A stretch of DNA of 64,000 bases, from NCBI GenBank assembly GCA_964372095.1, contig CAYJPV010000011.1:14252-78251 (forward strand), in the 5' to 3' direction. Both the position numbers and the translations under genes were made by a program. Below, one piece after another: positions 14,146-34,097 of the stretch (positions within the stretch are counted from its first letter, which is position 1; each line of letters starts with the position of its first letter). Origin of the DNA: an uncultured Vicinamibacterales bacterium (lineage in GTDB: Bacteria > Acidobacteriota > Vicinamibacteria > Vicinamibacterales > JAKQTR01). The notes below the pieces were generated by a model. The model had not been told where the DNA came from and did no database searches. It saw nothing but the letters and a program-made list of their open reading frames with translations.

Positions 14146-14851
14146 TGTCGACGCGGCTGGGCAGGCTTCGCCCGGGGTGCGCCAGCAGGTCCGTCACCAC
14201 CCGCGCCACATCCTGGGGCTGGAGTTTCCAGTCCGCGGTATTCCCGGCGTCGAACCCGCCGAACCCGGTCTTCACGGAACCCGGGCAGATGGTCGTCACC
14301 CGGATGTCGTCGTAGCGCAATTCCTGCATCAGCGCTTCGCCAAACGCGTTGAGACCGGCTTTCGTCGCCGAGTACGCCGCGCCGCCGGCAAACGGATTGG
14401 CGCTCGCCAGGCTGCTGATGTTGATAATCCACCCGCCGCCGCGCTGGCGCAGATGTGGAATGGCCGCGTGCGTGCAATAGAAGACGCCGTTCAGGTTCGT
14501 CTCGATCGTCTCGCGCCACTGCTCCCCGGTCATCGACGCCGTCTCGACAATGATGCCAACGGCCGCGTTGTTGATCAGGATGTCGAGGCCGCCCAGCCGC
14601 GCGGCCGCGGCATCGACCATCGCGCGGGCGTCGGCCTCGCGGCGCACGTCGCCCGACACCCACTCAACCCGCGCGCCCCCGTGATGGGCCGGCAACGACA
14701 AATCCGACACCGCCGTCCGCAGCGCGTGAGGATCGCGCCCCGTGATCAGGACGTGGGTGCCGGATTCGAGCAATTCAGCGGCAATCGCGCGGCCAATGCC
14801 TTTCGATCCGCCGGTCACGAGGGCAACGCGCTGAGACGTGGGGTAGTTCAT
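14114..14851 (-). CDS. SDR-family oxidoreductase
   Basis: VALVTGGSKGIGRAIA (TGxxxGxG), NNAAV, and YSATK (YxxxK). Confidence 0.9.
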   Translation of the reverse strand: MNYPTSQRVALVTGGSKGIGRAIAAELLESGTHVLITGRDPHALRTAVSDLSLPAHHGGARVEWVSGDVRREADARAMVDAAAARLGGLDILINNAAVGIIVETASMTGEQWRETIETNLNGVFYCTHAAIPHLRQRGGGWIINISSLASANPFAGGAAYSATKAGLNAFGEALMQELRYDDIRVTTICPGSVKTGFGGFDAGNTADWKLQPQDVARVVTDLLAHPGRSLPSRVDIRPSRPPKKK

Positions 14852-20353: not shown

Positions 20354-21643
20354 TCAGACCGACCCCTCGTCCCAGTTCTCGAGCTGTTTCTTGACGTGCG
20401 ACATAAATTCGTCGGCCACGGCGCCGTCGATCAGCCGGTGGTCGTAGCCCAGCGTCAGGTACCCCTTCATCCTGATGGCAATCGCATCGTCGATGACGGC
20501 CACGCGCTTTTCGATGTGGCCGACGCCCATGATGGCCACCTGCGGCTGGCTGATGATGGGCATGCCGAAGAGCGCACCGAATACGCCGGGGTTCGTGATC
20601 GTGAACGTGCCGCCTTGCACCTCGTCGGGTTTCAGCTGCTTCGCCCGCGCGCGCGCGGCGAGGTCCACCACGGCCCGGCTCAGGCCGAGCAGGTTCTTCT
20701 CGTCAGCCCGCTTGATCACCGGCACGATCAACCCCCAGTCGAGGGCGACGGCCACGCCGATGTTGACGTCCTTCTTGTAGACGACGTGGTCGCCGTCGAT
20801 CGAGGTGTTGACGATGGGCACGGCCTTCAGCCCATCGACGACCGCCTTGATGATGAAGGACATGAAGGTGAGCTTGGCTCCGGCGCGCTCGTAGTCGGCC
20901 TTCTTCGCCTGGCGGATCTTGTTGACCCGGGTATAGTCGACTTCGAACACCGAATGGACGTGCGCGGAGGTCCGCTTGCTGAACACCATGTGTTCGGCGA
21001 TCTTCTTCCGCATCACCGACATCGGCACGATTTCGACGTTCTCGCCCGGCTTGAAGGCCGGGGCGTGCGCTGCGGGGGCCGGAGGCGGAGCGGGAGCGGC
21101 TGCGGCCGGAGCCGGAGCGGCTGCGGGCGCCCCGCCGATAAATCCGAGGATATCGTTCTTGGTCACACGCCCGCCCAGGCCGGTCCCGGGGATCTGCGCG
21201 ATCTCCACGTTGTGTTCCCGGGCGATCTTCCTGACGAGTGGCGACGATTTCTGCCGGCGCAGATCATCTGCGCTGACGGGGGCAGCCGGCCCGGGTTCGG
21301 CCCGCGGCGGCGCGGGCGCGGCAACAGGCTCGACCCTGACGGGAGCCGGCGGGGCGGCGGCCGGAGCCGGGGCAGCAACGGCCGCGGGCGCAGGCGCGCC
21401 GGCGGGAACGGCGTCGCCGATTACGGCCACGACCGAGTTCACAGGGACGGTCTCGCCCTCCTTCGCCTTGATCTCGAGCAGTACGCCCGCGGTCGGCGAG
21501 GGGATTTCGGCGTCCACTTTGTCGGTCGAGATCTCGAACAGCGGTTCGTCGCGATCGACGCGTTCGCCGACCTTCTTGATCCAGCGAACGATCGTGCCTT
21601 CCGCAATCGACTCGCCCATCTGCGGCATTACGACATCGGACAT
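20354..21643 (-). CDS. 2-oxo acid dehydrogenase E2 (dihydrolipoyllysine-residue acyltransferase)
   Basis: Lipoyl domain EISTDKVDAEIPSP, Ala/Pro linkers, E3-binding SPLVRKIAREHNVEIAQIPGTGLGGRVTKNDI, and catalytic DHRLIDGA. Confidence 0.9.
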   Translation of the reverse strand: MSDVVMPQMGESIAEGTIVRWIKKVGERVDRDEPLFEISTDKVDAEIPSPTAGVLLEIKAKEGETVPVNSVVAVIGDAVPAGAPAPAAVAAPAPAAAPPAPVRVEPVAAPAPPRAEPGPAAPVSADDLRRQKSSPLVRKIAREHNVEIAQIPGTGLGGRVTKNDILGFIGGAPAAAPAPAAAAPAPPPAPAAHAPAFKPGENVEIVPMSVMRKKIAEHMVFSKRTSAHVHSVFEVDYTRVNKIRQAKKADYERAGAKLTFMSFIIKAVVDGLKAVPIVNTSIDGDHVVYKKDVNIGVAVALDWGLIVPVIKRADEKNLLGLSRAVVDLAARARAKQLKPDEVQGGTFTITNPGVFGALFGMPIISQPQVAIMGVGHIEKRVAVIDDAIAIRMKGYLTLGYDHRLIDGAVADEFMSHVKKQLENWDEGSV

Positions 21644-21663
21644 ATTCCCCTCGCTCTGATGCT

Positions 21664-21849
21664 TGGCTCGGCTGATCGGCTATCGGCGTTCGGCCATCGG
21701 CCATCGGCGTTCGGCTATCGGACGGCGGAACGGACAGTAGACAGTAGTCAGTAGTCAGTAGTCAGTAGTCAGTAGGGAGTATTCCTACTTCCTACTTCCT
21801 ACTTCCTACTTCCTACTTCCTGATTCCTGCTTCCTGCTTCTTGCTTCCG
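21664..21849. repeat. Three consecutive heptamer arrays filling the lpdA-E2 spacer: (CGGCNAT)n, (GTAGTCA)n, inverted (CTACTTC)n/(CTGCTTC)n
   Basis: The subarrays are at 21664-21722, 21734-21776 and 21784-21849. gtagggagta / tacttcctac form the hairpin apex. Confidence 0.9.
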
Positions 21850-21866
21850 GCACACGTCAGCCCCCG

Positions 21867-23285
21867 CTACACGTGTATCGCCGCCCCGTGGGCCGCGTGG
21901 GCGGCTTCGCCCATGGCTTCCGACATGGTCGGGTGCGCGTGGATCGTGCGAATCAGTTCTTCGACGGTGCACTCGGTCCGGAGGGCCAGCACGGCTTCGG
22001 CCACGAGTTCGGTCGCCCGCGGTCCGATGATGTGGACGCCAAGCACCTCGTCGTACTTCTTCTCGGCCACGATCTTCACGAAGCCCTCGGTTTCGGCGGC
22101 GATGCGGGCACGGCCGAGCACCTGAAACGGGAAGGTCCCCACGCGCACGTCGTACCCGCGCTCGGCGGCCTGTTTCTCGGTCAGGCCCACACTGCCGATC
22201 TCCGGGTCGCTGTAGGTACACTTCGGCACGTGGTCGTAGTTCAGCGGCGTCACGGCCTTGCCGGCCAGGCGTTCCGCCAGCAGGACGCCCTCCGCGGTCG
22301 ACAGGTGCGCCAACTGAAGGTGTCCCGGCTTGCCGAACGAGATCACGTCGCCGACCGCCGAGATGTTCGGCACGCTGGTCCGGAACAGCTCGTCCACCAC
22401 CACGTACCCGCGGTCCATCTTGATGCCGGCCGATTCGGCCCCGAGGCCGGCGGTCACGGGCCCGCGCCCGGTGGCCACCAGGAGGAACGCCGCCGACATC
22501 TTCTGCGCGGAGCCGTCGGGCATCTTCACGTCGATCTCGACGGCGTCAGCGCCGGCCCTCGCCGCGGTCACGGACGCCGACGTGTGGAATTTGATCCCGC
22601 TCTTCTTGAAGGCCTTCTCGAGTTCCACCGAGACGGCTTCATCCTCGAGTGGCACCAGGTGCGGCAGCAGTTCGATGACGGTGACGTCCGACCCAAACCG
22701 CTTGAACACGGTTGCGAACTCCACCCCGATGGGCCCGCTGCCCATGATGATGATGGACTTCGGCACTTCGCGCAGGTGAATAGCCTCGTCGCTCGTGATG
22801 ATCCGTGTGCGGTCCAGTTCGATGCCGGGAACGCTCCGCGCGCTCGATCCCGTGGCGATGACAATCTCCCTGGCCGTCAGGGTCACCGGGGCGTCGCCGC
22901 CGGTCACCTCGACGGTGCCCTTGCCGGCCAGGCGGGCGCTGCCTTTGATCCAGTCGATGTTGTTCTTCTTGAAGAGGAACTCGATGCCCCGGGTGAGGAT
23001 CGTGACGATCTTGTCCTTGCGCCCCTGCACCTGGTTCATGTCGATGCGCGCGGGCTGGTCCCCCAGAATCAGGCCCCATTCTTTGGCGTTCTGGGCGATC
23101 TTCAGGGCGTGCGCGTGCTCGAGCAACGCCTTGGTCGGGATACACCCCCAGTTCAGGCACGTGCCCCCCAGGGTCTTCTGCCGCTCGACCACGGCCACCT
23201 TCAACCCGAGTTGGGCGGCGCGGATCGCGGCGGGGTATCCGCCGGTTCCGGCGCCGATCACGACGACGTCGTACTGGTTCGCCAC
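21867..23285 (-). CDS. lpdA: Dihydrolipoyl dehydrogenase (E3)
   Basis: ORF 21867..23636 trimmed to GTG 23285, which is preceded by AGGAG. YDVVVIGAGTGGYPAAIRAAQLG. Redox-active GGTCLNWGCIPTK. C-terminal HAHPTMSEA. Confidence 0.9.
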   Translation of the reverse strand: MANQYDVVVIGAGTGGYPAAIRAAQLGLKVAVVERQKTLGGTCLNWGCIPTKALLEHAHALKIAQNAKEWGLILGDQPARIDMNQVQGRKDKIVTILTRGIEFLFKKNNIDWIKGSARLAGKGTVEVTGGDAPVTLTAREIVIATGSSARSVPGIELDRTRIITSDEAIHLREVPKSIIIMGSGPIGVEFATVFKRFGSDVTVIELLPHLVPLEDEAVSVELEKAFKKSGIKFHTSASVTAARAGADAVEIDVKMPDGSAQKMSAAFLLVATGRGPVTAGLGAESAGIKMDRGYVVVDELFRTSVPNISAVGDVISFGKPGHLQLAHLSTAEGVLLAERLAGKAVTPLNYDHVPKCTYSDPEIGSVGLTEKQAAERGYDVRVGTFPFQVLGRARIAAETEGFVKIVAEKKYDEVLGVHIIGPRATELVAEAVLALRTECTVEELIRTIHAHPTMSEAMGEAAHAAHGAAIHV

Positions 23286-23299
23286 TGGTCTGCTCCTGA

Positions 23300-23800
23300 T
23301 CAGTTGATCTTCACACGGGCCCCGTGCAGGGCTTTGCGCGCGGGCGCATAGTCGGAATCGTGCTCGAGGGCCCGGCCGTAACATTCGAGGGCCCGGCTCA
23401 GCTGGTCCTTGGCCTCGTAGACGCGGCCGAGGTTGTACCACGGGAACTGATAGCTCTCGTAGCGGGTTGCGGCCGTCGCCTTCTCGAGCCACGGGATCGC
23501 GTCGTCCGGCCGCTCCATCTCGATCAGGTAGGCCCCGATGTCGTTGTAGGGGTTGCCGAATTCGGGATCCACGTCGATGGCCTTGCGGCACTCGGCAATG
23601 GCGTCCTCGAGGCGGCCCTGGAAGGAGTACGTCCACCCCAGGAAGGTGTGGGCCTCGGCCGTCGGATGCTGCTGGATGGACGCCCGGTACAATGTGGCGG
23701 CCTCGTCCAGTTCGCCGGACATCTGGCGGTCGTAGGCCTGCTGGAACAGGGCCAGCGCCTTGTCGATCTTCGATTTTCGGGCGGAGTGTGATTGGTCCAT
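23300..23800 (-). CDS. TPR repeat protein (166 aa)
   Basis: Repeated A..Y...I...P....A...LG motifs. 14 nt upstream of lpdA on the same strand. Confidence 0.75.
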   Translation of the reverse strand: MDQSHSARKSKIDKALALFQQAYDRQMSGELDEAATLYRASIQQHPTAEAHTFLGWTYSFQGRLEDAIAECRKAIDVDPEFGNPYNDIGAYLIEMERPDDAIPWLEKATAATRYESYQFPWYNLGRVYEAKDQLSRALECYGRALEHDSDYAPARKALHGARVKIN

Positions 23801-23907
23801 GGGTGGAGACCCGGCGTCCGTGCGTGAGCGCTCTCGGCGCGGGCGGATTTCCGGGGCAGAACTTTAGGGTACAATCAGCGTCCCTCTCATTTCAAGCGAG
23901 GACCGTC

Positions 23908-25296
<1,389 letters not shown>

Positions 25297-25393
25297 ACCG
25301 GGGCCGGGGATCGGGGACCACCCCGGTGGGCCCCAGCCGCCCGCACACGTGCGGAACCCGCACACGCGGTTTCCGTAAGCGGCCGCGCGCGTA

Positions 25394-25408
25394 TTGCAGT
25401 TTCTGCAA
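25394..25408. promoter_or_regulatory. Perfect inverted repeat TTGCAG-N3-CTGCAA, possible enhancer (UAS) site
   Basis: ttgcagtttctgcaa, about 200 bp upstream of the -24/-12 promoter. Nearby direct repeats CGCACACG at 25341-25369. Confidence 0.3.
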
Positions 25409-25605
25409 CGTCGATCACGATTCCGAGATCGCAGAAAACGCACGCTGTCACGGAACTGGACACATCTGTCGTCCGCGTCCTCCTGCGCAGGCCTGCACGA
25501 CCACCACAATCTCTGGAGTTCTCGCCACGAAGTGCCACAGCCGGCAGTAGCTGCGGCCCGGGTGCTCCTGCACACCGTCTCGCACGCCTGCCTGCGGATG
25601 CACCG

Positions 25606-25621
25606 TGGAACGGCGGTTGCA
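25606..25621 (+). promoter_or_regulatory. Sigma54 (-24/-12) promoter
   Basis: TGGAAC-GGCGG-TTGCA matches TGGCAC-N5-TTGCW with the invariant GG and GC correctly spaced. It lies 28 nt upstream of the radical SAM ATG, with GGAGA in between. An NtrC-type activator gene is adjacent. Confidence 0.6.
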
Positions 25622-25648
25622 GAAAGTGCCAGCGGAGATTTCGTCACG

Positions 25649-27070
25649 ATGGTGCCTTCTGCCTTCAACGTGCGCGCGCCGCTGGCTTCCGGGGACGTGT
25701 TCCTGATGAACACGCTGACCGACGCTCAGCTCGTCGTGTCGCCCGAAGTCGCGACCCTGCTCGACGTCGCGGCGGCCGAGGGTTTCAGCGCGTTGCCCTC
25801 CGCACCGGATGTCAGGGAGGCAGCAGACACTCTCTCGGAACACGGGTTCCTGGTCAGCGATCCGCGGTCGGAGCGTGCGGCACTCGAGACCCACTTTGCC
25901 GCGTTCCGCACGGATGCGTCCGAACTCCGCATCACCATCCTGACCACGATGCAGTGCAACTTCGCGTGCGAGTACTGCTACCAGGGAGACCACGGACCTG
26001 CGGCGAAACCCGCCGAGAAGATGACCCTGGAGACGGCCCGCCAGGTTTCGGCCTGGATCGCGTGCGAGATGGAACGCCTCCGCCCGTCGATGCTGGTGAT
26101 CACGTTCTTCGGCGGCGAGCCGCTCCTCAACCTGCCCGCGCTCTACGACATCGCTGAACGCTGCGCGCACGCCGCCCGCGGGCTGGGTGTCGAGTTCGCC
26201 ATGACGATCATCACGAACGGGCTGCTGCTGACGCCCGAGGTCGTGACGCGCCTCGTGCCCCTCGGCCTGCGCGCAGTCAAGGTCACGCTCGACGGCGACC
26301 GCGAGACCCACGACCGGCTGCGGCCCATGCGCGGCGGCCAGCGCACGTTCGATCGGATCGTCGACAACATGCGGCGCGTCGCGCCCCTGGTGCCGTTGAG
26401 TGTCGGCGGCAACTTCGATGCCGCCACCGTTGACCGGTACCCGGCGCTCCTGGCGTTCCTGCGCGAACAGGAGTTCGCGGACCGCATCATTCAGGTGTCG
26501 TTCAAGCCGATTATCCAGCCCGCCCGCGCGGGTGCCGTGAAGGGCGTGATTCCCCTGACGGCGGTGGCCGGCGGCGGCCCGGTCACGGGGAGCGGGTGCG
26601 GGAGCGGCAGCGGAACGGGCTCCGGCAGCCGGTCCGTGTGCGACTCGTGCCACTTCGTGGACGACCAGATGGCGTTCCTCCAGACCGAGACGCGCCGGCA
26701 CGGGTTCGCGACGCTCGACGGCGTGCACATGGGACCGTGCGAACTCTACCGGCAGCACTCCCACACCATCGGACCGGACGGGACGCTGTTCGCGTGCCCG
26801 GGGTTCACGGGCGACAACGCCCAGGCCGTCGGTCACATCGAACGCGACCCGGACGTCTTCCAGGCCGCCGCAGCCAATCGGGTCGCCAACCTTGCGCCCT
26901 GGCGGCAGTGCGGCGATTGCGCCTTCATCCCCGTGTGCGGCGGAGGCTGCGCCGTGGCCGCTCACTCCGAGGGCGGCGATATGGCGGCCCCGGCGTGCCA
27001 CAAACGAGCCTTCGAATCAGCAGTCATCACCCTGGCGGCGGAGACCGCCATCAACCAGCAAGGAGCCTGA
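25649..27070 (+). CDS. Radical SAM/SPASM-domain peptide-maturase-like enzyme with a ~100-aa N-terminal RRE-like extension
   Basis: ATG 25649 within ORF 25394..27070. CNFACEYC (CxxxCxxC) at residues 103-110. C-terminal SPASM signature CGDCAFIPVCGGGC plus further Cys pairs. The N-terminal text DVFLMNTLTDAQLVVSPEVATLL resembles peptide-maturase leaders. Confidence 0.85.
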   Translation: MVPSAFNVRAPLASGDVFLMNTLTDAQLVVSPEVATLLDVAAAEGFSALPSAPDVREAADTLSEHGFLVSDPRSERAALETHFAAFRTDASELRITILTTMQCNFACEYCYQGDHGPAAKPAEKMTLETARQVSAWIACEMERLRPSMLVITFFGGEPLLNLPALYDIAERCAHAARGLGVEFAMTIITNGLLLTPEVVTRLVPLGLRAVKVTLDGDRETHDRLRPMRGGQRTFDRIVDNMRRVAPLVPLSVGGNFDAATVDRYPALLAFLREQEFADRIIQVSFKPIIQPARAGAVKGVIPLTAVAGGGPVTGSGCGSGSGTGSGSRSVCDSCHFVDDQMAFLQTETRRHGFATLDGVHMGPCELYRQHSHTIGPDGTLFACPGFTGDNAQAVGHIERDPDVFQAAAANRVANLAPWRQCGDCAFIPVCGGGCAVAAHSEGGDMAAPACHKRAFESAVITLAAETAINQQGA

Positions 27071-27071
27071 C

Positions 27072-27170
27072 ATGCGTATCGCCGTCGTAAAGAAAGCTGC
27101 CACCGTCCGTGCCGAATCGCTACCATATTGCCCATGGCTGGTGACAATTCCCCCGGTGCACACGAAGTAG
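27072..27170 (+). CDS. Hypothetical 32-aa peptide, candidate radical SAM substrate: MRIAVVKKAATVRAESLPYCPWLVTIPPVHTK
   Basis: AAGGAG at 27060-27065 lies 6 nt before ATG 27072. It starts 1 nt after the maturase stop. GC is locally lower. It overlaps the annotated start region of the next gene, so one of the two starts may be wrong. Confidence 0.45.
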   Translation: MRIAVVKKAATVRAESLPYCPWLVTIPPVHTK

Positions 27171-28738
27171 CGCCGAACCGATACGGTGTCGGAGCGCGGC
27201 GCTCCACACCGGCACGTGCCTGCCCCGGTGCCCGAACGCGCCGGCGGCGGCTGGTCCTCCTCCTCCACGGAACGTTCGGCGCGGTGTGCGTGCTGGCTGC
27301 GGGATGTTCACCGTCCCGGCCAGCCGCCACTCGGCACGACCCTGTCACCCTCACCATTGCCGTGCCCCTCGCCCGGGTTCCCGGCGCCGAACCTGGCATG
27401 GGGCTGCCTGGCGCGGATTTCGAACGCCTCACAACCTACGACGCGCACGGCAGGGCCGCCCCCCTGCTGGCCGAGCGGTGGGCACAGTCAGCCGACGGAC
27501 GGACGTGGCGGCTCACGCTCCGGCCTGAGGTCCGGTTCCAGGACGGCGCGATGTTGAGCAGCGCGGACGTCCGGGAGGCCATCCGCGAGGCCGCCGCCAG
27601 TCCGGTCTTCCGCGCCAGTTCCGTCTGCCTGCCCGACATCACGAACGTGACGACCGACGGCGAGCGGGACGTCGTCGTCCACCTGGCCCGCCCGTGCGCT
27701 TTCCTGCTCGACGACTTCGAGTTCAACATCTCGCACGCCGGCCCCGACGGAAAGCCGGCGGGGACCGGCCCGTTTGTCCGGACGGGCTCCACGGAGAACG
27801 AAGCCACGTTTGCGGCGTACACGCACTACCACGCCGGCAGGCCGCACGTCGATCACGTGGTCGTCCGGACGTACGACACACTCCGGGCCCCGTGGGCCGA
27901 GATGATGCGGGAACAGATTGATCTCCTCCTCGAGGTCGGCCCGGACGGATTCGAGTTCCTCCGCGATCAGTCAACCGTCGAGACTCGCGCCTACACGTCG
28001 TTCAAGCCGGTCGCCATCGTGCTGAACTCGGGCCGGACGAGTCTCCGCCGCCCGGAAGTCAGGCGGGCGCTGAGCCGCGCCGTGGATCGAGCGGAACTGG
28101 TCGAGCAGGGCCTCAAGGGGCAGGGCCTCCAGGCAGATACGCCGGTGTGGCCCTTGTTCTGGGCGGCCGAGGGCAGCCTTCCCGGGGCCGTCACTCCCTT
28201 CGATCCCGGAGGCGCCCGCGACGTCCTGTCGAAAGACGGCCGGCTGGTCGTCACGTGCCTCATTCCCGCAGGGCACTCGGTATTCGAGCGCCTGGCGCTC
28301 CTGGTGCAGCGACAGTGGCGGTCCGTCGGCGTCGACATGCGACTCGAGGAGGTCTCGGTCAACACCCTGCGCATGCGGGTCGGCACCGGCGACTTCGACG
28401 CCGCGATGATCGATCCGCTCGGTGGCCCGTACGCCTCCTATCAGTACCGGTTCTGGCATTCGCCGAATCCCGACGCGCGGTGGAACGTCTTCAACTACAG
28501 CAGTCCCGTCGTCGACGCGGCGCTCGATGCCCTCCGGGGTTCGGTCAGCGACGACGAGTTCCGCCTCGCGATGGGGCAGTTCATCGCTGCCGTGCGCGTA
28601 GACCCGCCGGCCGTCTTCCTCGTCTGGCCCACACGCGCGCAGGCCATCAGCCGCCGCTTCATCCTGCCGGACGACGCCGCGGGCACTGACGCCGTCCGCA
28701 GCGTGGCCCGGTGGCGCCTGCGCGGAGAGACCCGGTGA
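27128..28738 (+). CDS. Family-5 (peptide/nickel type) solute-binding lipoprotein
   Basis: TTG 27128 or ATG 27134. TRRRRLVLLLHGTFGAVCVLAAGCS is a twin-Arg-like signal with a lipobox. VRFQDGAMLSSADVREAI is typical of SBP family 5. The n-region is unusually long, so the start is uncertain. Confidence 0.8.
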   Translation: MPMAGDNSPGAHEVAPNRYGVGARRSTPARACPGARTRRRRLVLLLHGTFGAVCVLAAGCSPSRPAATRHDPVTLTIAVPLARVPGAEPGMGLPGADFERLTTYDAHGRAAPLLAERWAQSADGRTWRLTLRPEVRFQDGAMLSSADVREAIREAAASPVFRASSVCLPDITNVTTDGERDVVVHLARPCAFLLDDFEFNISHAGPDGKPAGTGPFVRTGSTENEATFAAYTHYHAGRPHVDHVVVRTYDTLRAPWAEMMREQIDLLLEVGPDGFEFLRDQSTVETRAYTSFKPVAIVLNSGRTSLRRPEVRRALSRAVDRAELVEQGLKGQGLQADTPVWPLFWAAEGSLPGAVTPFDPGGARDVLSKDGRLVVTCLIPAGHSVFERLALLVQRQWRSVGVDMRLEEVSVNTLRMRVGTGDFDAAMIDPLGGPYASYQYRFWHSPNPDARWNVFNYSSPVVDAALDALRGSVSDDEFRLAMGQFIAAVRVDPPAVFLVWPTRAQAISRRFILPDDAAGTDAVRSVARWRLRGETR

Positions 28739-30504
28739 GAAGCCTGCGAGTGCTGGTCGCCGTGATGCTGGCCACCGCGGCTGTCGTGCCGCTGGTGGTT
28801 TACGGGGTGGTGTCCGTTTACACGCTGCGCGTCGGCATCCGCCGGACCGTGGTGGAAGGCAACGCCAACGTCGCCCGCCAGGTTGGCGAGCAGGTCCGCC
28901 GCTACATCGCGACCAATCTCCAGATCTTCCAGGCGGTCGCCGTCGATGTCGAAGACACCGGCCTCACGGTCGATCAGCAGGACCGCATCCTGAAGGGTTT
29001 CGTGCTGCGTTTCCCTGAGTTCCGCGAACTGACCCTCTACGACGCCGACGGACGGCAACGGGCATCCAGCCGCGTGGGTGCCGCATCCGCACGCCCTGAC
29101 GCGGCGAAGACCAGGCTCGTGATGGGCGTGACCATGACGCCCGTTACGGTGGACGACGACCTGATGCCGGCCACCATCGTGACGAAGGAAATTCGCGATC
29201 AGGGTACGCTGACGGGCACGCTCGTCGGACAGTTCAGCATCGAAGAGTTGTGGCGGATGGTCGACCGGATTCATATCGGGCGGTACGGGGTCGCGCTGAT
29301 CGTGGGCGCGGGCGGCGAACTGCTGGCCCATGGCAACCCGGACGAACGTCCCCGCGTGGCGCGCAGCGAACGGCTCACCCGCCACCCGGCGGTCGTCAGG
29401 ATCCGCGAGGCAGACAGCGACGATCCCGTCGTGGTGGATGCCATCGCAGCCGACGGCAGCACCATGCTTTCGGTCGGCGCCCGCATTCCGGAACTCGACT
29501 GGATCGTGCTGGTCGAGCAGCCGTACTCGGAGGCGTTCGCCCTGGCGCGCCGCCAGGAACGGGAACTGATCGCCGTCATCAGCCTGGCGCTGCTCATCAT
29601 GATTGTCGGCGGCTTCTACTGGGCGCGGACCCTGATCACGCCCATCGAGGCGCTGACGCAGGCCACGCAGGCACTGGCCGACGGTCACCTGGAAGAGCGC
29701 GTGCAGGTGAACGCCGGCGGAGAACTCGGTCAGCTGGGAACGGCGTTCAACTCGATGGCCGACCGCCTGGTGACCTTGCAGGACGACGTGCGCAAGCAGG
29801 AACGACACGCAATGTTCGGACGTGTCGCGGCCGGCCTCGTCCACGACCTCTCGCACCCGTTCAAGAACGTGCATAACAACTGCAAGCTCATCCTGAAGAT
29901 GTACGCCGACCCCGAGTACCGGGAACTGTTCTCACGCACCGTGGAACGCGAGTTCTCGACGATACGCCGGGTCTTCGAAGACCTGCGCAACATCGCCAAG
30001 CCGATGCCCCTCGAGAAGTTCCCGCTCGATCTCAACAAGCTGGTCGGCGAGACGGCCGAGGCGATGCGGGCCAATGCCGACGTGGCGGGACTGGAGTACG
30101 CGACGAACGTCGGCGCCGCCGAGACGTACGTCGCCGGCGACATGTTCGCGATCGGGCGTGTCTGCCGGAACCTGATTATCAACGCGATCGAAGCGACACC
30201 GCCTCAGGGTCGCGTAACCGTCTCGACCGGACTGGGCCAGGGCCGGGCGCGGATCGTCGTCGCCGACACCGGCTGCGGGATTCCGCCCGAACGCCTCGAG
30301 ACGCTGTTCGAGGACTTCTCGACGACCAAGCGGCAGGGACTGGGCCTCGGACTGGCCATCTCACGGAAGATCGTCGAGCAACTGGGTGGGACGATCGCGG
30401 CGGCCAGCGCGCCCGGTACGGGCACGGTGTTCACGGTGGAGTTCCCGGCGGTGGAGCGGCCTCGAACGTCGAGGGAAATCCCGGCGGATGGAGTCGGCGC
30501 GTAA
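28735..30504 (+). CDS. Sensor histidine kinase (TM - periplasmic Cache-like domain - TM - HAMP - HisKA - HATPase)
   Basis: GTG 28735 overlaps the SBP stop (GGTGA) and is preceded by GGAGAG. HAMP ALADGHLEERV ... FNSMADRL. H-box AAGLVHDLSHPF. N box NLIINAIEAT. G boxes DTGCGIP and [13 protein letters not shown]. Confidence 0.9.
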   Translation: MRSLRVLVAVMLATAAVVPLVVYGVVSVYTLRVGIRRTVVEGNANVARQVGEQVRRYIATNLQIFQAVAVDVEDTGLTVDQQDRILKGFVLRFPEFRELTLYDADGRQRASSRVGAASARPDAAKTRLVMGVTMTPVTVDDDLMPATIVTKEIRDQGTLTGTLVGQFSIEELWRMVDRIHIGRYGVALIVGAGGELLAHGNPDERPRVARSERLTRHPAVVRIREADSDDPVVVDAIAADGSTMLSVGARIPELDWIVLVEQPYSEAFALARRQERELIAVISLALLIMIVGGFYWARTLITPIEALTQATQALADGHLEERVQVNAGGELGQLGTAFNSMADRLVTLQDDVRKQERHAMFGRVAAGLVHDLSHPFKNVHNNCKLILKMYADPEYRELFSRTVEREFSTIRRVFEDLRNIAKPMPLEKFPLDLNKLVGETAEAMRANADVAGLEYATNVGAAETYVAGDMFAIGRVCRNLIINAIEATPPQGRVTVSTGLGQGRARIVVADTGCGIPPERLETLFEDFSTTKRQGLGLGLAISRKIVEQLGGTIAAASAPGTGTVFTVEFPAVERPRTSREIPADGVGA

Positions 30505-30508
30505 CGAA

Positions 30509-30549
30509 GCCGGTGGCGCGCCACGGACAAACGGGGCGCCGCCACCGGC
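30509..30549. terminator. Strong GC hairpin between convergent genes
   Basis: gccggtggcgcgcc / ggcgccgccaccggc. ~14-bp stem with one bulge and a 12-nt loop. No U-tract. Confidence 0.45.
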
Positions 30550-30586
30550 CTTCGCGGGTGTATCAGGTTGCCGAAGCCGGCCCTGG

Positions 30587-30886
30587 CTACTTGCGCGGCA
30601 GGACCGTGTCCTTCAACTGCTTGGCGATGCGCGCTTTCACGACGGTCTTGGCCGGGATCTTGATCGGCTCACCGGTCGCAGGATTCCGGCCCATCCGGGC
30701 CTTGCGCTTCTGCACCACCAGCTTGACCATCCCGGGCAGGCTGAATTCGCCCGACCGCTTCAGTTCCTTCTCCGCGAGCATCGTCAGCTCGTCGAAGATC
30801 TCGCGGGCCTGCGCGCGCTTCATCTCGAAGCGGGTCGCGAAGTGCGCGAAGAGTTCCGACTTGCCCATCCTCCGGGCCTCTGCCAT
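30587..30886 (-). CDS. HU/IHF-family DNA-binding protein
   Basis: ATG 30886 is preceded by GAGGAG. KSELFAHFATRF ... GRNPATGEPIKIPAKTVVKARIAKQLKD. Confidence 0.9.
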   Translation of the reverse strand: MAEARRMGKSELFAHFATRFEMKRAQAREIFDELTMLAEKELKRSGEFSLPGMVKLVVQKRKARMGRNPATGEPIKIPAKTVVKARIAKQLKDTVLPRK

Positions 30887-31064
30887 GGGTTTTCTCCTCA
30901 ACAACACGCGCATGATCAAAAACCGCAAGCCAGCCGTGCGCGGGCGGCAGACCTCGGATTCAAGGCGGTAGGACGAGAATGCTAACGCGGCATCCAACGT
31001 GTGTCAATTACCCTTGCACACAGGTTTCATCGGTTTTTCGGCCATAAATGCTAACATTTGACCG

Positions 31065-31412
31065 ATGTCAAGTGCCAAGATTGAAACATTCGCCAACCCG
31101 CGCCCCTCGCGCGACTATGAGATCGTCATCAACGCGCCCGAGTTCACCTCGGTGTGTCCCATGACCGGGCTCCCCGACTTCGGGGAGATACGGATTTCGT
31201 ACGTCCCGGATCAACTCTGTCTCGAGCTCAAAGCCCTCAAGTACTACCTGCTCGAGTACCGCAACCAGGGCATCTTCTACGAAGCGGCAACCAATCAGAT
31301 TCTCGACGACCTCGCCGCCGCCTGCCAGCCCCGCCGCATGACCGTTACGGGCATCTTCACCGCCCGCGGCGGCATCAGCACGACGGTGACGGCGCACTAC
31401 GCTGGGGGTTAG
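31065..31412 (+). CDS. queF: NADPH-dependent 7-cyano-7-deazaguanine reductase (type I QueF)
   Basis: 115 aa. EFTSVCPMTGLPDFGEIRISYVP and LELKALKYYLLEYRNQGIFYE. Confidence 0.95.
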   Translation: MSSAKIETFANPRPSRDYEIVINAPEFTSVCPMTGLPDFGEIRISYVPDQLCLELKALKYYLLEYRNQGIFYEAATNQILDDLAAACQPRRMTVTGIFTARGGISTTVTAHYAGG

Positions 31413-31422
31413 GGGTTGGGGG
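31404..31422. repeat. Short heptamer array (GGGGTTA)n
   Basis: gggggttaggggttggggg. It supplies the queF TAG stop. Confidence 0.8.
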
Positions 31423-31437
31423 CACTGCCTCCTGAAC

Positions 31438-31490
31438 GTAGCCCCGGACCTTTAGGTCCGGGGACCCCGGGGCTGAAGCCCCGGGGCTAC
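31438..31490. repeat. Two adjacent REP-like palindromes (type A and type B)
   Basis: gtagccccggacctttaggtccgggg + accccggggctgaagccccggggctac. Confidence 0.9.
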
Positions 31491-31511
31491 GAAACGAACG
31501 ATGCCGAACCC

Positions 31512-34097
31512 ATGCCAACTGTGAAGCGCACTCTTGCCGTCGTTGCTGTGGTGGCTCTGGTCTGGGGCGCCTCGCCCGCTGCGGCGCAGGTGCCGACGCC
31601 GGAGAGCTTCTTCGGATTCCGGATGGGCGCCGACGGCAAACTCGCCGACTGGCCGGCCATCGAGAAGTACTTCGCCGCCGTCGACACCGCGTCCGATCGC
31701 GTGCAACTGGTCGACGCGGGACCCACGACTGAAGGCCGGCGGATGATTGCCGCCATCATCAGTGCGCCCGAGAACATCAGGAACCTCGAGACGCTGCAGA
31801 TCGACAACCGGCTGCTCGCCGATCCCCGCCGGCTGGCCAACGACCGTGAAGCACTGGCCATCCGCACGGGCGCACGGGCCGTCGTCGCCATCGGCGCCAG
31901 CATCCACGCGAGCGAAGTCGGCGCGACGCAGGCGGCCAACGAACTCCTCTACGACCTGGCCACGTCCAACGATCCCGAGACGGAACTCACGCTGAAGAAC
32001 CTCATCGTGATCCTGTTTCCGTCCCTGAATCCGGACGGCCACGTGATGGTGGTCGACTGGTACCGCAAGTCGGTGGGCACGCCGCTCGAAGGCGGGCCGA
32101 TGCCGTGGATGTACCACAAGTACGCCGGCCACGACATCAACCGCGACGCCTTCATGCTGAACATGCAGGAGAACCGGACGCTCGCCCGCTTCTTCTCGCG
32201 GGAGTGGCATCCCCAGGTGTTCCTCGCCATGCACCAGATGGGGACGAACGGTCCCCGGTTCTTCGTGCCGCCGAACGTCGGTCCGATTGATCCCAACCAG
32301 GACCCGCTCATCTGGCGGACGGCCGGTCTGCTCGGCGGCGCGATGGCGCTGGCACTCGAGAGCCGCAACAAACCCGGCGTGATTTCAAACGCGATGTACG
32401 ACTACTTCTGGCCCGGGTACGAAGACTCCGCCCCCCTGGGCCGCAATACCGTGTGCGTGCTCACCGAAGTCGCGTCGGCGCGCCTGGCCAGCCCCGTCGA
32501 GATCGCGCCGAAGGACCTGCGCGGCACACCTCGCGGCCTGCCGGAATACCGCGCCGAGATCAACTTCCCCAATCCATGGCCGGGCGGCGCCTGGCACCTG
32601 CGCGACATCGTCGACTACAACCTGATCGCCATGCGCGGCCTGCTCGGCGCCTCCGCCAGGTACCGTGACGAGTTGCTGCAGAACTTCTACACCATGGGCC
32701 GCCGCGCCATCGCGCGAGGCACAGACGAAGGTCCCTTCGCCTGGGTCATTCCGCCCGACCAGCACGACATGGCCGCAGCAGCCAAGCTGGTCTCGCTGCT
32801 CGCCGAAGGCGGCGTCGAGGTCCTGCAGGCGCAAGAGCCCTTCAAGGCCGGCAAGACCGTTTACGATGCCGGCACGGTCATCGTGCCGATGGCCCAGCCC
32901 TTCCGGGCGTACGCCAAGAGCCTGCTCGAGGTGCAGCGTTACCCCGGCAGCAGGAATGCGGCCGGCGGAACCGATCGGCCGTACGATGTGACCGGCTGGA
33001 CGCTGCCGCTCCAGATGGGCGTCACCGCGGAGCGGATCGAAACGCCGGTCGATCTGCCCGTGACGGCACGCATCGACCGGCTGGCGGCCCCGCCTCGTTT
33101 CCTCGTCGGGCACGCGAACCCCGATGTCTACCTGATCGACGGACGGGGCAACCTCGGGGCTCTGGCCGCGAACCGCCTGCGTACCGGCGGAGCCAGGCCC
33201 GAATGGACCGTCACGACGATCACGGCCGACGGCGTCTCCTACCCGCCAGGGACCATTGCCGTGCGGGCAAACCCGTCGAGCCGGAAGCTGGTGGAGTCGC
33301 TGGTCCGTCAATTGGGCGTGCGCGCCACCGGGACGCGAACGCGGGTGTCGGCAACACAGCCGATCCCTGCCGCGCGCATCGGGCTGTACCGGCCCTGGAA
33401 CGAAGCCATCGACGAAGGCTGGACCCGCTGGCTCCTCGAGCAGTACGAGTTCCCCTTCACCACCGTGCGTGATACCGACATGCGCCGGGGCAACCTCAAC
33501 ACGCACTACGACGTGATCATCCTTCCGTCGATCGCGCCCCAGCGTCTCATCGACGGCAACCGGGCGGGTTCGGTGCCGGACGAGTACGCCGGCGGACTCG
33601 GCCCGGCTGGCACAGCGGCCATCAAGGCGTTCGTCGAGGCCGGCGGCACCCTCGTGACGCTTGACGCGTCGTCGCAGCTCGCCATCGATACGCTTGGCCT
33701 GCCCGTCACCAACCTGGTGCGGGGCCTCCCCGCCGACAAGTTCTTCTGTCCAGGCTCACTTGTCCGGCTCGACGTCGAGCGCTCGCACCCCCTGGGCTTC
33801 GGGATGGCCGCCGACACGGCGGCATTCTTCGCCTTCAGCAGCGCCTGGGATGTCACCAAAGCCCCCGGCGCCCGTGTGGCGGCACGATACGGCCGGGAAG
33901 GCCTGCTCCTGAGCGGCTGGCTCGAAGGCGAACAGGTGATCGCCGGCCAGCCCGCCGTCGTCGAGGTCCCGGCTGGCGCGGGACGAGTCGTACTCATCGG
34001 GTTCCGGGCCCAGCATCGCGGCCAGGCCCATGCCACCTTCCGGTTGCTGTTCAACAGCCTCCTGACGAATCGCCCCGGTGGCGCCAACGGCCGATAG
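31512..34097 (+). CDS. Secreted M14-family metallocarboxypeptidase-like protein (large, multidomain)
   Basis: ATG 31512 gives MPTVKRTLAVVAVVALVWGASPAAAQ. The text SIHASEVGATQAANELLYDL ... LFPSLNPDGH matches the M14 HxxE zinc region. Confidence 0.8.
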   Translation: MPTVKRTLAVVAVVALVWGASPAAAQVPTPESFFGFRMGADGKLADWPAIEKYFAAVDTASDRVQLVDAGPTTEGRRMIAAIISAPENIRNLETLQIDNRLLADPRRLANDREALAIRTGARAVVAIGASIHASEVGATQAANELLYDLATSNDPETELTLKNLIVILFPSLNPDGHVMVVDWYRKSVGTPLEGGPMPWMYHKYAGHDINRDAFMLNMQENRTLARFFSREWHPQVFLAMHQMGTNGPRFFVPPNVGPIDPNQDPLIWRTAGLLGGAMALALESRNKPGVISNAMYDYFWPGYEDSAPLGRNTVCVLTEVASARLASPVEIAPKDLRGTPRGLPEYRAEINFPNPWPGGAWHLRDIVDYNLIAMRGLLGASARYRDELLQNFYTMGRRAIARGTDEGPFAWVIPPDQHDMAAAAKLVSLLAEGGVEVLQAQEPFKAGKTVYDAGTVIVPMAQPFRAYAKSLLEVQRYPGSRNAAGGTDRPYDVTGWTLPLQMGVTAERIETPVDLPVTARIDRLAAPPRFLVGHANPDVYLIDGRGNLGALAANRLRTGGARPEWTVTTITADGVSYPPGTIAVRANPSSRKLVESLVRQLGVRATGTRTRVSATQPIPAARIGLYRPWNEAIDEGWTRWLLEQYEFPFTTVRDTDMRRGNLNTHYDVIILPSIAPQRLIDGNRAGSVPDEYAGGLGPAGTAAIKAFVEAGGTLVTLDASSQLAIDTLGLPVTNLVRGLPADKFFCPGSLVRLDVERSHPLGFGMAADTAAFFAFSSAWDVTKAPGARVAARYGREGLLLSGWLEGEQVIAGQPAVVEVPAGAGRVVLIGFRAQHRGQAHATFRLLFNSLLTNRPGGANGR

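Follow-up and report, generated by a model that had tools for sequence, protein, structure and literature searches.

Directly behind the gene for a radical S-adenosylmethionine (SAM) enzyme, the genome of an uncultured Vicinamibacterales bacterium (Acidobacteriota) contains an open reading frame (ORF) of 32 codons. Is this ORF a gene and, if so, what might its product do? The question was addressed in a stretch of 64,000 nucleotides (positions 14,252 to 78,251 of the forward strand of contig CAYJPV010000011.1, assembly GCA_964372095.1), referred to here as the window, in which the ORF occupies positions 27072-27170. An earlier note, made from the letters of the window alone, had described the ORF as an unrecognised precursor of a peptide that is ribosomally synthesized and then modified post-translationally (RiPP), with a leader-like N-terminal half, a core containing Cys, and an upstream radical SAM maturase. 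The comparative data support this description. We consider it probable that the ORF encodes the precursor of a so-far undescribed RiPP family; the cassette to which it belongs may be a self-regulating circuit for peptide signalling. The features of the ORF are as follows:

27060-27065, + strand: Shine-Dalgarno sequence AAGGAG of the peptide gene, within the 3' end of the radical SAM gene
27072-27170, + strand: probable precursor peptide gene, 32 amino acids (aa), with ATG at 27072 and TAG at 27168-27170; homologues at the same position in approximately 50 loci
27129-27131, + strand: codon 20, TGC (Cys), the sole invariant residue of the peptide family and the presumed modification site
27144-27146, + strand: codon 25, ACA (Thr, five residues after the Cys, or Cys+5), hypervariable among near-identical alleles (Thr, Val, Tyr, Asn)

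The translation of 27072-27170 is MRIAVVKKAATVRAESLPYCPWLVTIPPVHTK, which appears to comprise a leader, MRIAVVKKAATVRAESLPY, and a core, CPWLVTIPPVHTK, the boundary between the two being a predicted one. The radical SAM gene ends with TGA at 27068-27070, just 5' of the ATG. On reading positions 26800-27500, the AAGGAG, ATG, and TAG were found where the earlier note had placed them. Its remark that the G+C content and third-position G+C content (GC3) are lower than in the neighbouring genes was likewise borne out: the values are 0.566 and 0.636 for the ORF, as compared to 0.69 (GC3, 0.88) for the radical SAM gene and 0.70 (GC3, 0.88) for the binding-protein gene that follows. A low G+C content is general for the homologous ORFs, with a mean of 0.557 versus 0.660 for the adjoining radical SAM gene (47 loci).

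The 32-aa ORF is already present in the public gene calls on the source contig. In the public protein collection, the exact peptide occurs, nameless, on 19 contigs; close alleles of it carry the label 'hypothetical protein'. The ORF has been called by gene finders and never assigned a function. When the window peptide and 42-43 members of its family were scanned against NCBIfam and Pfam, no family was assigned at E ≤ 10, in agreement with the earlier note, which had recognised no named RiPP family in the peptide; weak Pfam matches to AgrD (0.079) and methanobactin (0.77) were dismissed as noise. A literature search returned nothing on the peptide, the cassette, 'geopeptide', or TIGR04280, with the proviso that subscription papers were thinly covered and that a mention in earlier large-scale mining is possible.

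Conservation of the peptide gene

Twenty-nine homologues of the maturase were aligned, and the alignment was used to retrieve 80 genomic loci, of which 58 were true relatives (30-61% identity). Five close relatives and one Nitrospiria locus were added afterwards. The earlier note had staked its prediction on the recurrence of a small ORF in syntenic loci. Indeed, an ORF of the same family, encoding 22-39 aa, follows the radical SAM gene in essentially every locus with downstream sequence (L001-L058 and also L081, L085, L086, L089, and L091). These approximately 60 syntenic loci are mostly from Vicinamibacterales, with others from Myxococcota, Nitrospiria, and unclassified genomes, and occur in high- and low-GC DNA alike. 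Three of them (L020, L043, and L046) come from genomes labelled Luteitalea. Examples of the homologous peptides are MKITVIKKATTTRKPQNFCPWIMDE..KK, MKIQIIKKAVVNAKPQGMCNVMVDEAPMNKK, MKIKAVKKGNKTTETKMTGCLAYFF (an unclassified bacterium), MKIEKGQKVTNPNPVRCPGTLF (Myxococcota, two copies), and MKIVKKGERKVKIKRAYCTWFVG (Nitrospiria, low GC).

The homologous ORFs have the hallmarks of translated genes. A GGAG-type Shine-Dalgarno sequence precedes the start codon in 46 of 47 loci. In the codon alignment, the second position of the conserved hydrophobic columns is nearly fixed (pairwise difference 0.00-0.09) while the first and third positions vary (0.26-0.56), and variation at the conserved Lys and Asp columns is mainly at the third position. 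Within the family, the N-terminal half (MKIxVIKKA...) is conserved; some 10 residues on, it is followed by a Cys that is invariant in 43 of 43 aligned peptides, and then comes a hypervariable tail. Trp is frequent yet replaceable; there is no conservation of Tyr19, His30, or the terminal Lys. Thus, of the residue types that had been suggested as reacting partners, Cys, the only invariant one, is supported; the participation of Trp, Tyr, and Lys in a cross-link found no comparative support.

Searching a collection of 5.8 billion proteins with a profile of the family yielded 949 peptide clusters at E ≤ 0.01. Among the 120 clusters listed, all were 29-49 aa in length (118 were 29-35 aa), none had a Pfam domain, and the sole name was 'hypothetical protein'. 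Moreover, two to three peptide genes occur in tandem in L024 (6352-6977), L036 (6631-6847), L040 (6592-6954), and L055 (directly 3' of the radical SAM gene). L040 has three identical copies; the two of L036 show slight differences in their cores. Tandem copies are typical of RiPP precursors. A profile search of the six-frame translation revealed no second copy in the window, the one weak match being an out-of-frame, Arg-rich stretch.

Close relatives of the window provided a measure of selection. The ratio of nonsynonymous to synonymous substitution rates (dN/dS) of the peptide ORF among them was 0.14-0.40, i.e., below 1. Nucleotide identity was 0.88-0.97 in the ORF versus 0.68-0.94 in the following 100 nucleotides (nt), which are locally the least conserved. 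Between the window ORF and that of L081, whose maturase is 88% identical, there are approximately five synonymous changes, two changed residues, and a change of start codon from ATG to GTG. One damaged copy was found: in a groundwater Acidobacteria genome (L008, 3377-3469), the peptide gene contains two in-frame stops, TAA at codon 4 and TAG at codon 12. The genes for the regulator, maturase, and binding protein in L008 appear to be intact over the sequence covered, the contig ending within the binding-protein gene, and the peptide copy may be a pseudogene and the strain a signal-negative variant. Based on the homologous ORFs, the Shine-Dalgarno sites, the codon-position pattern, the invariant Cys, the tandem copies, and the 949 clusters, the ORF is almost certainly a real gene.

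The earlier note had cautioned that the end of the ORF overlaps the start of the next gene and that one of the two calls might be wrong. The second gene is the following:

27134-28738, + strand: orphan family-5 (peptide/nickel type) solute-binding protein with a signal peptide and a lipobox-like LAAGC (Pfam SBP_bac_5, 1.6e-51); start uncertain

The signal peptide of the binding protein is RRRRLVLLLHGTFGAVCVLAAGC / RTRRRRLVLLLHGTFGAVCVLAAGC. The public gene call begins at ATG 27398, which drops the signal peptide and the LAAGC, and is probably wrong. The starts that retain the signal peptide, ATG 27134 and TTG 27128, both lie within the peptide ORF and are, as had been noted, the sole canonical in-frame starts 5' of the signal peptide; ATG 27134 has no Shine-Dalgarno sequence of its own. 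The overlap is therefore as described, but it does not threaten the peptide call. Across the 37 nt of overlap, the differences between the window and L081 amount, in the peptide frame, to three synonymous codon changes and one replacement; read in the binding-protein frame, they are five replacements and no synonymous change. This pattern indicates that selection in the overlap acts on the peptide frame. Codons 1-57 of the binding protein are near neutral (dN/dS 0.48-0.83), as compared to 0.12-0.21 for the mature part. The binding-protein frame is open and free of indels from ATG 27134 in all close relatives, so the protein may yet have a long, loosely constrained N-terminal extension. In L002, L020, and other more distant loci, the peptide stop lies 5' of the first possible binding-protein start and there is no overlap.

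The maturase and its relation to known systems

The gene preceding the peptide ORF encodes the candidate modifying enzyme:

25649-27070, + strand: radical SAM/SPASM peptide maturase, 473 aa, with an N-terminal domain resembling a RiPP recognition element (RRE); identical to public gene call P0001 (Pfam Radical_SAM)

The CxxxCxxC radical SAM motif (C103/C107/C110) was invariant in the alignment of 29 homologues, as were the full seven-Cys SPASM pattern (C364-x13-G-x4-C383, C421-x2-C424-x5-C430-x3-C434, and C450) and three further Cys residues (317, 331, and 334). An AlphaFold2 model of the maturase had a mean predicted local distance difference test score (pLDDT) of 72.7 and a predicted template modelling score (pTM) of 0.76. 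In this model, residues 1-88 form three strands and three helices in an RRE-like shape (pLDDT of approximately 87); there was no Pfam PqqD match in the maturase. Using the full-length model, Foldseek ranked CteB first (template modelling score 0.58-0.64, including the RRE-like N-terminal domain), followed by SuiB, TigE, and SkfB. CteB and SuiB carry RREs. CteB was also the closest solved structure by sequence (1e-26).

The maturase scored below the cut-off of every NCBIfam family. The top family was TIGR04280, 'geopeptide radical SAM maturase' (241 bits versus a cut-off of 400), and the next were CefB, TIGR04463, FlmE/OhkG, PapB, QhpD, Clo7bot, the nif11 type, SCIFF, and CcpM. The nearest families are mostly described as maturases of Cys-containing peptides. 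Relatives of the window maturase, including those from other phyla, scored 234-305 bits on TIGR04280, all below 400, and this range places the group beside the geopeptide enzymes, as their sister, and outside that family. A search for true geopeptide maturases via a distant homologue produced eight candidates, none of which reached the cut-off.

The ORF is very probably translated into a substrate of the adjoining maturase, as judged by the adjacency of the two genes across phyla, the RRE-like domain, the proximity to CteB, and the invariant Cys. The locus has the general attributes of radical SAM/SPASM RiPP pathways, namely the cluster motifs of the enzyme and a short adjacent precursor with a conserved leader and a variable core. 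Overall, the pathway appears to work like other radical SAM/SPASM RiPP pathways, with an enzyme whose sequence is closest to the thioether-forming sactipeptide and ranthipeptide synthases.

Comparison with individual systems indicates where the resemblance ends. The geopeptide system, TIGR04280 being a bioinformatic-only hypothetical equivalog, resembles that of the window in being the top curated family for the maturase and in pairing a SPASM enzyme with a short neighbouring peptide that it presumably modifies; the window system is set apart from it by the maturase score. No NCBIfam model matched any of 42 peptides at E ≤ 10. CteB, which matures thermocellin, is closest to the window maturase by sequence and fold and belongs with PapB, which matures freyrasin, to the ranthipeptide/SCIFF enzymes. 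In the product of CteB, a Cys is linked to the Thr five positions further downstream; PapB acts on CX3D/E motifs, in which it joins Cys to Asp or Glu. Most members of the present peptide family have Asp or Glu at Cys+5, and the window peptide has Thr there. However, SCIFF peptides (TIGR03973/TIGR03974) contain six Cys in approximately 45 residues, while the window peptide contains one and matches no SCIFF model. The maturase misses the corresponding cut-offs (TIGR03974, 93 versus 425 bits; PapB, 118 versus 340 bits). Moreover, close relatives have Val, Tyr, Asn, Ala, or Cys at Cys+5, so a fixed side-chain link from Cys to Asp or Thr is not general. Variable residues in the acceptor region would be compatible with a thioether of the sactipeptide type, in which the Cys sulfur is joined to an alpha-carbon. 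The three-residue cyclophane enzymes YhhB, FxsB, and XyeB, which go with cores that have aromatic-X-X repeats, differ from the window maturase in score (YhhB, 75 versus 445 bits; FxsB, 65 versus 370 bits), and the Trp is not conserved in the peptides.

Two further groups of systems are relevant to the possible function of the product. The streptococcal radical SAM RiPPs (RaS-RiPPs) of the NxxC and KGR types have short precursors with one Cys and a SPASM-type radical SAM enzyme, encoded in operons tied to cell-cell signalling. One of them, KgrA, is a single-Cys sactipeptide (PMC10288494). The locus in the window shares with the RaS-RiPPs the short single-Cys precursor and SPASM-type enzyme in an operon that is a candidate for a role in signalling. 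It differs in that control of the RaS-RiPPs, which belong to Gram-positive bacteria, lies with a separate Rgg/SHP pheromone pair, whereas the control module here, in a didermic acidobacterium, consists of a dCache kinase with a binding protein and a sigma-54 regulator, and the modified peptide is itself the candidate signal. The peptides have no detectable sequence relation.

The AgrD/AgrC, ComX/ComP, and PrgZ systems combine a small, modified, hypervariable signal with a fast-evolving receptor and autoinduction, and PrgZ, a pheromone-binding OppA homologue, is a family-5 binding protein that serves as a peptide receptor. The comparative patterns described below, i.e., a hypervariable peptide, a fast-evolving binding protein, and alleles at residue 25, resemble those of the three systems. 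In contrast, there is no sequence homology, the class of modification enzyme is another one, and the cassette encodes no exporter or processing enzyme. In addition, reception of the signal would here fall to a binding protein acting with a kinase, and the response would be sigma-54-dependent.

The cassette, its promoter and its rates of change

The other elements of the cassette and its surroundings are as follows:

23908-25296, + strand: NtrC-type sigma-54-dependent response regulator, 462 aa (receiver, AAA+ sigma-54 activator, and Fis-type helix-turn-helix domains; Pfam, NCBIfam)
25394-25437, no strand assigned: conserved block with inverted repeats, TTGCAG-TTT-CTGCAA ... (TTGCAGTTTCTGCAACG...GATCGCAGAAA), common to the window, L081, and L085
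25606-25621, + strand: sigma-54 type -24/-12 promoter, TGGAACGGCGGTTGCA, 28 nt 5' of the radical SAM start codon, with one mismatch to TGGCAC-N5-TTGCW
27184-27211, + strand: GC-rich hairpin, CGGUGU-C-GGAGCG-CGG-CGCUCC-ACACCG, without a U-tract, right after the peptide stop (z = -2.4 for 27160-27290)
28735-30504, + strand: sensor histidine kinase (periplasmic dCache, HAMP, and HATPase domains; Pfam, gene call, and synteny)
20354-23636, - strand: divergent 2-oxoacid dehydrogenase E2 and lpdA genes
30587-30886, - strand: HU-like gene
31065-31412, + strand: queF
31512-34097, + strand: M14 zinc carboxypeptidase

The cassette thus runs from the sigma-54 response regulator through the sigma-54 promoter, maturase, peptide or peptides, and binding protein to the dCache histidine kinase. 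The start of the regulator was taken from the gene call on an identical contig, L082, and the kinase start overlaps the binding-protein stop by 4 nt. The regulator is syntenic in nearly all related loci (63-75% identity). Using tblastn with the four large proteins, the order regulator-maturase-binding protein-kinase was the same in all loci long enough to tell. It is kept in loci from Myxococcota (L055), Nitrospiria (L086), and an unclassified bacterium (L057), the last without a binding-protein match. In Vicinamibacterales, the cassette is at a fixed chromosomal site adjoining the divergent E2 and lpdA genes, with lpdA present in 49 loci; this fixed site points to vertical inheritance within the order and not to an island. 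The M14 carboxypeptidase was considered as a trimmer of the C-terminal Lys and rejected, being outside the module and syntenic only in the eight closest loci. Pfam and the gene calls placed no ATP-binding cassette (ABC) permease or ATPase gene near the binding protein, whose NCBIfam and Protein Data Bank (PDB) matches are of the NikA, Opp, and Dpp-like types.

The promoter region is conserved in form. The promoter of the window is conserved in L081 and L085, and 58 of 62 loci have the pattern [CT]GGNNN-N5-TTGC 31-145 nt 5' of the radical SAM gene, the estimated chance expectation for the strict pattern being <0.01 per locus. At the level of the sequence, therefore, a sigma-54 promoter beside the gene for a sigma-54 activator is what would be expected of autoinduction through a co-encoded regulator. 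Among the conserved genes of the cassette, none is dedicated to processing or export. One or two copies of a palindrome, CGGCCAA-N3-TTGGCCG, often 21 nt apart, occur 5' of the sigma-54 promoter in most loci, approximately 200-340 nt 5' of the radical SAM start in most of L001-L056 (e.g., L028, L017, and L006). The 7-mer CGGCCAA was present in 44 of 56 upstream regions versus 1 of 56 control regions. Such paired upstream palindromes are the classic enhancer layout of NtrC-type activators. The palindrome is missing from the window, L081, and L085, which instead have the inverted-repeat block at 25394-25437, conserved amid an otherwise diverging intergenic region. This replacement suggests that the DNA specificity of the regulator has changed in the clade of the window, for which the block is a candidate enhancer for the response regulator. 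Rfam had no match in 23000-31500, and simple scans of 25200-27500 revealed no sigma-70 promoter or intrinsic terminator.

Two further elements deserve mention. The hairpin after the peptide stop might determine how strongly the peptide is expressed relative to the binding protein and the kinase, or might stabilise the transcript; in L081, a different, perfect 10-bp hairpin is present in the same spacer (approximately 2258-2281). A second conserved small ORF, M..KK....KKGTLRPWLVDV.V[ED][HN]LR, lies between the radical SAM gene and the Cys peptide in ten loci and is absent from the window. It encodes 25-29 aa where the start is clear, contains no Cys, and has a 'PWLVDV' motif in common with many Cys-peptide cores. 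Its product may serve as a second substrate, as a decoy, or as a regulator. The ten occurrences are these:

L006:6450-6536
L009:6475-6564
L016:6432-6518
L017:6494-6583
L036:6468-6554
L037:6429-6512
L040:6470-6559
L048:6420-6554
L053:6482-6559
L028: directly 3' of the radical SAM gene (contig ends)

The components of the cassette evolve at different rates. The mean protein p-distances, computed over 26 complete cassettes, were:

Regulator: 0.29
Maturase: 0.39
Kinase: 0.48
Peptide: 0.59
Binding protein: 0.65

The rank order of dN/dS among close relatives was the same. Within the peptide, the p-distance was 0.43 for the leader versus 0.73 for the core. Using Mantel tests, whole-peptide distance best tracked binding-protein distance (r = 0.68; partial r of 0.62-0.66 when controlling for the regulator, p ≤ 0.0005). 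The corresponding values were 0.59 for the periplasmic part of the kinase, 0.58 for the maturase, and 0.14, i.e., no correlation, for the cytoplasmic part of the kinase.

At the finest scale, the peptides of the window, L081, L085, L089, L091, and L092 differ only at residue 4 (A/T) and residue 25. The codons for residue 25 are ACA or ACC (Thr), GTG (Val), TAT (Tyr), and AAC (Asn), and pairs with different residues differ at two to three of the three bases. The remainder of the ORF in these near-identical alleles has only A4T and a few synonymous changes, with a synonymous divergence of 0.06-0.38. The pattern looks like diversifying selection at the core position Cys+5, which varies freely in the clade of the window and, in the family at large, is mostly Asp or Glu.

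Signal, effector or cofactor precursor

Based on these data, the following mechanism is proposed. The conserved leader would be bound as a beta-strand by the RRE-like domain of the maturase, which would then act on the invariant Cys. Most plausibly, the sulfur would be joined to a carbon of a residue two to five positions downstream to give a thioether macrocycle, since the sactipeptide and ranthipeptide synthases are the nearest relatives of the maturase. We slightly favour such Cys-centred cross-linking over other chemistries. The leader would be removed and the product released through functions not encoded in the cassette. Outside the cell, the lipoprotein-like binding protein would capture the product and signal via the dCache kinase to the response regulator. 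The regulator would in turn activate the sigma-54 promoter of the maturase-peptide-binding protein-kinase operon, giving a positive-feedback loop resembling quorum sensing, in which variation at Cys+5 and the fast-evolving binding protein may set signal specificity. That the product is an autoinducing signal is put forward tentatively, as a proposal that falls somewhat short of an even chance. A still more specific version is possible but rather doubtful: a single-Cys peptide cyclised by a radical SAM enzyme would be a secreted pheromone in Vicinamibacterales and in scattered Myxococcota, Nitrospiria, and other lineages, would be read by the orphan Opp/Nik-type binding protein and the dCache kinase, with feedback through the sigma-54 regulator, and would define strain 'pherotypes' through Cys+5.

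Several observations weigh against this proposal. The nearest named relatives of the binding protein are nickel and metallophore binders as much as peptide binders. The conserved cassette contains no protease or exporter, the M14 peptidase being syntenic in only eight loci, which leaves maturation and release of a signal unexplained. The covariation of the peptide and the binding protein offers weak support, since slowly evolving proteins resolve the tree poorly and the core-only distance is discordant, being correlated also with the cytoplasmic part of the kinase (r = 0.49). With respect to the chemistry, SPASM enzymes also make C-C cross-links, epimerise residues, and oxidise Cys, and the acceptor position for a cross-link cannot be assigned from Cys+5 in these sequences. 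Finally, a Cys-only model does not account for the Cys-free small peptide (..TLRPWLVDV..LR) of ten loci.

Some of the same observations would suit a product that is an effector, such as an antimicrobial, anti-competitor, or metal-binding compound, with the sensor genes reading an unrelated cue (peptides, nickel, or a metallophore) and switching on its production. A sensor of this kind would fit the NikA-type nickel and metallophore binders that are the best named matches of the binding protein, and dCache domains are able to bind small ligands by themselves. The lack of an exporter or protease in the cassette also speaks for an effector, and hypervariable cores and allelic hot spots are typical of bacteriocins too. 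However, immunity and transporter genes, though usual beside antimicrobial RiPPs, are not conserved with the cassette, and its fixed site beside lpdA/E2 across the order suggests vertically inherited core equipment and not a mobile weapon. Nor would the sensor of a generic cue be expected to be the fastest-evolving component, with a divergence that tracks that of the peptide. We regard the effector as unlikely. A cofactor or redox molecule, processed intracellularly from the peptide as pyrroloquinoline quinone (PQQ) is from PqqA and mycofactocin is from MftA, is very improbable, even though a precursor of approximately 30 aa and a SPASM enzyme with an RRE-like domain resemble PqqA/PqqE and MftA/MftC and though the cassette adjoins 2-oxoacid dehydrogenase E2/E3 genes in approximately 49 loci. 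Those genes lie on the opposite strand, loci outside Acidobacteriota do not have them, and the cassette has no dedicated peptidase, oxidase, or partner dehydrogenase. Cofactor precursors keep their reacting residues and C-terminus invariant, whereas the present peptides have one fixed Cys and a hypervariable tail. Tandem copies with different cores, and an extracytoplasmic binding protein and sensor kinase within the conserved unit, also argue against a cofactor.

The least credible alternative is that the ORF is non-functional, either a chance ORF or an upstream frame that merely loads ribosomes onto the overlapping binding-protein start. In its favour, ATG 27134, lying within the ORF, has no Shine-Dalgarno sequence, and the L008 copy has two in-frame stop codons. 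The comparative data nevertheless contradict it. The amino-acid sequence is conserved across phyla and GC contents, the Cys is invariant, and dN/dS is 0.14-0.40; moreover, the ORF exists in tandem copies and, in loci such as L002 and L020, without any overlap.

With the preferred reading of a modified, possibly signalling peptide, the locus would be of interest for what it joins together. We rate it, on the sequences compared, as an apparently new precursor family and maturase clade, linked to genes for control and reception that have not been associated with RiPPs before. It represents an order-wide gene set with a precursor family of at least 949 clusters, a maturase outside every curated family, and a built-in candidate receptor and promoter. 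Vicinamibacterales are among the most abundant soil bacteria. To our knowledge, the Acidobacteriota as a whole are dominant but poorly understood in soil, and almost nothing is known of their communication; acyl-homoserine lactones dominate current thinking on signalling in didermic bacteria. If the product is a signal, the cassette would bring peptide- or RiPP-based quorum sensing to didermic bacteria, with a receptor architecture to which, so far, no peptide pheromone has been linked, and the T/V/Y/N variants at Cys+5 would provide a natural allelic series for the study of signal specificity. If it is merely a regulated effector, the product would still be a new single-Cys radical SAM RiPP.

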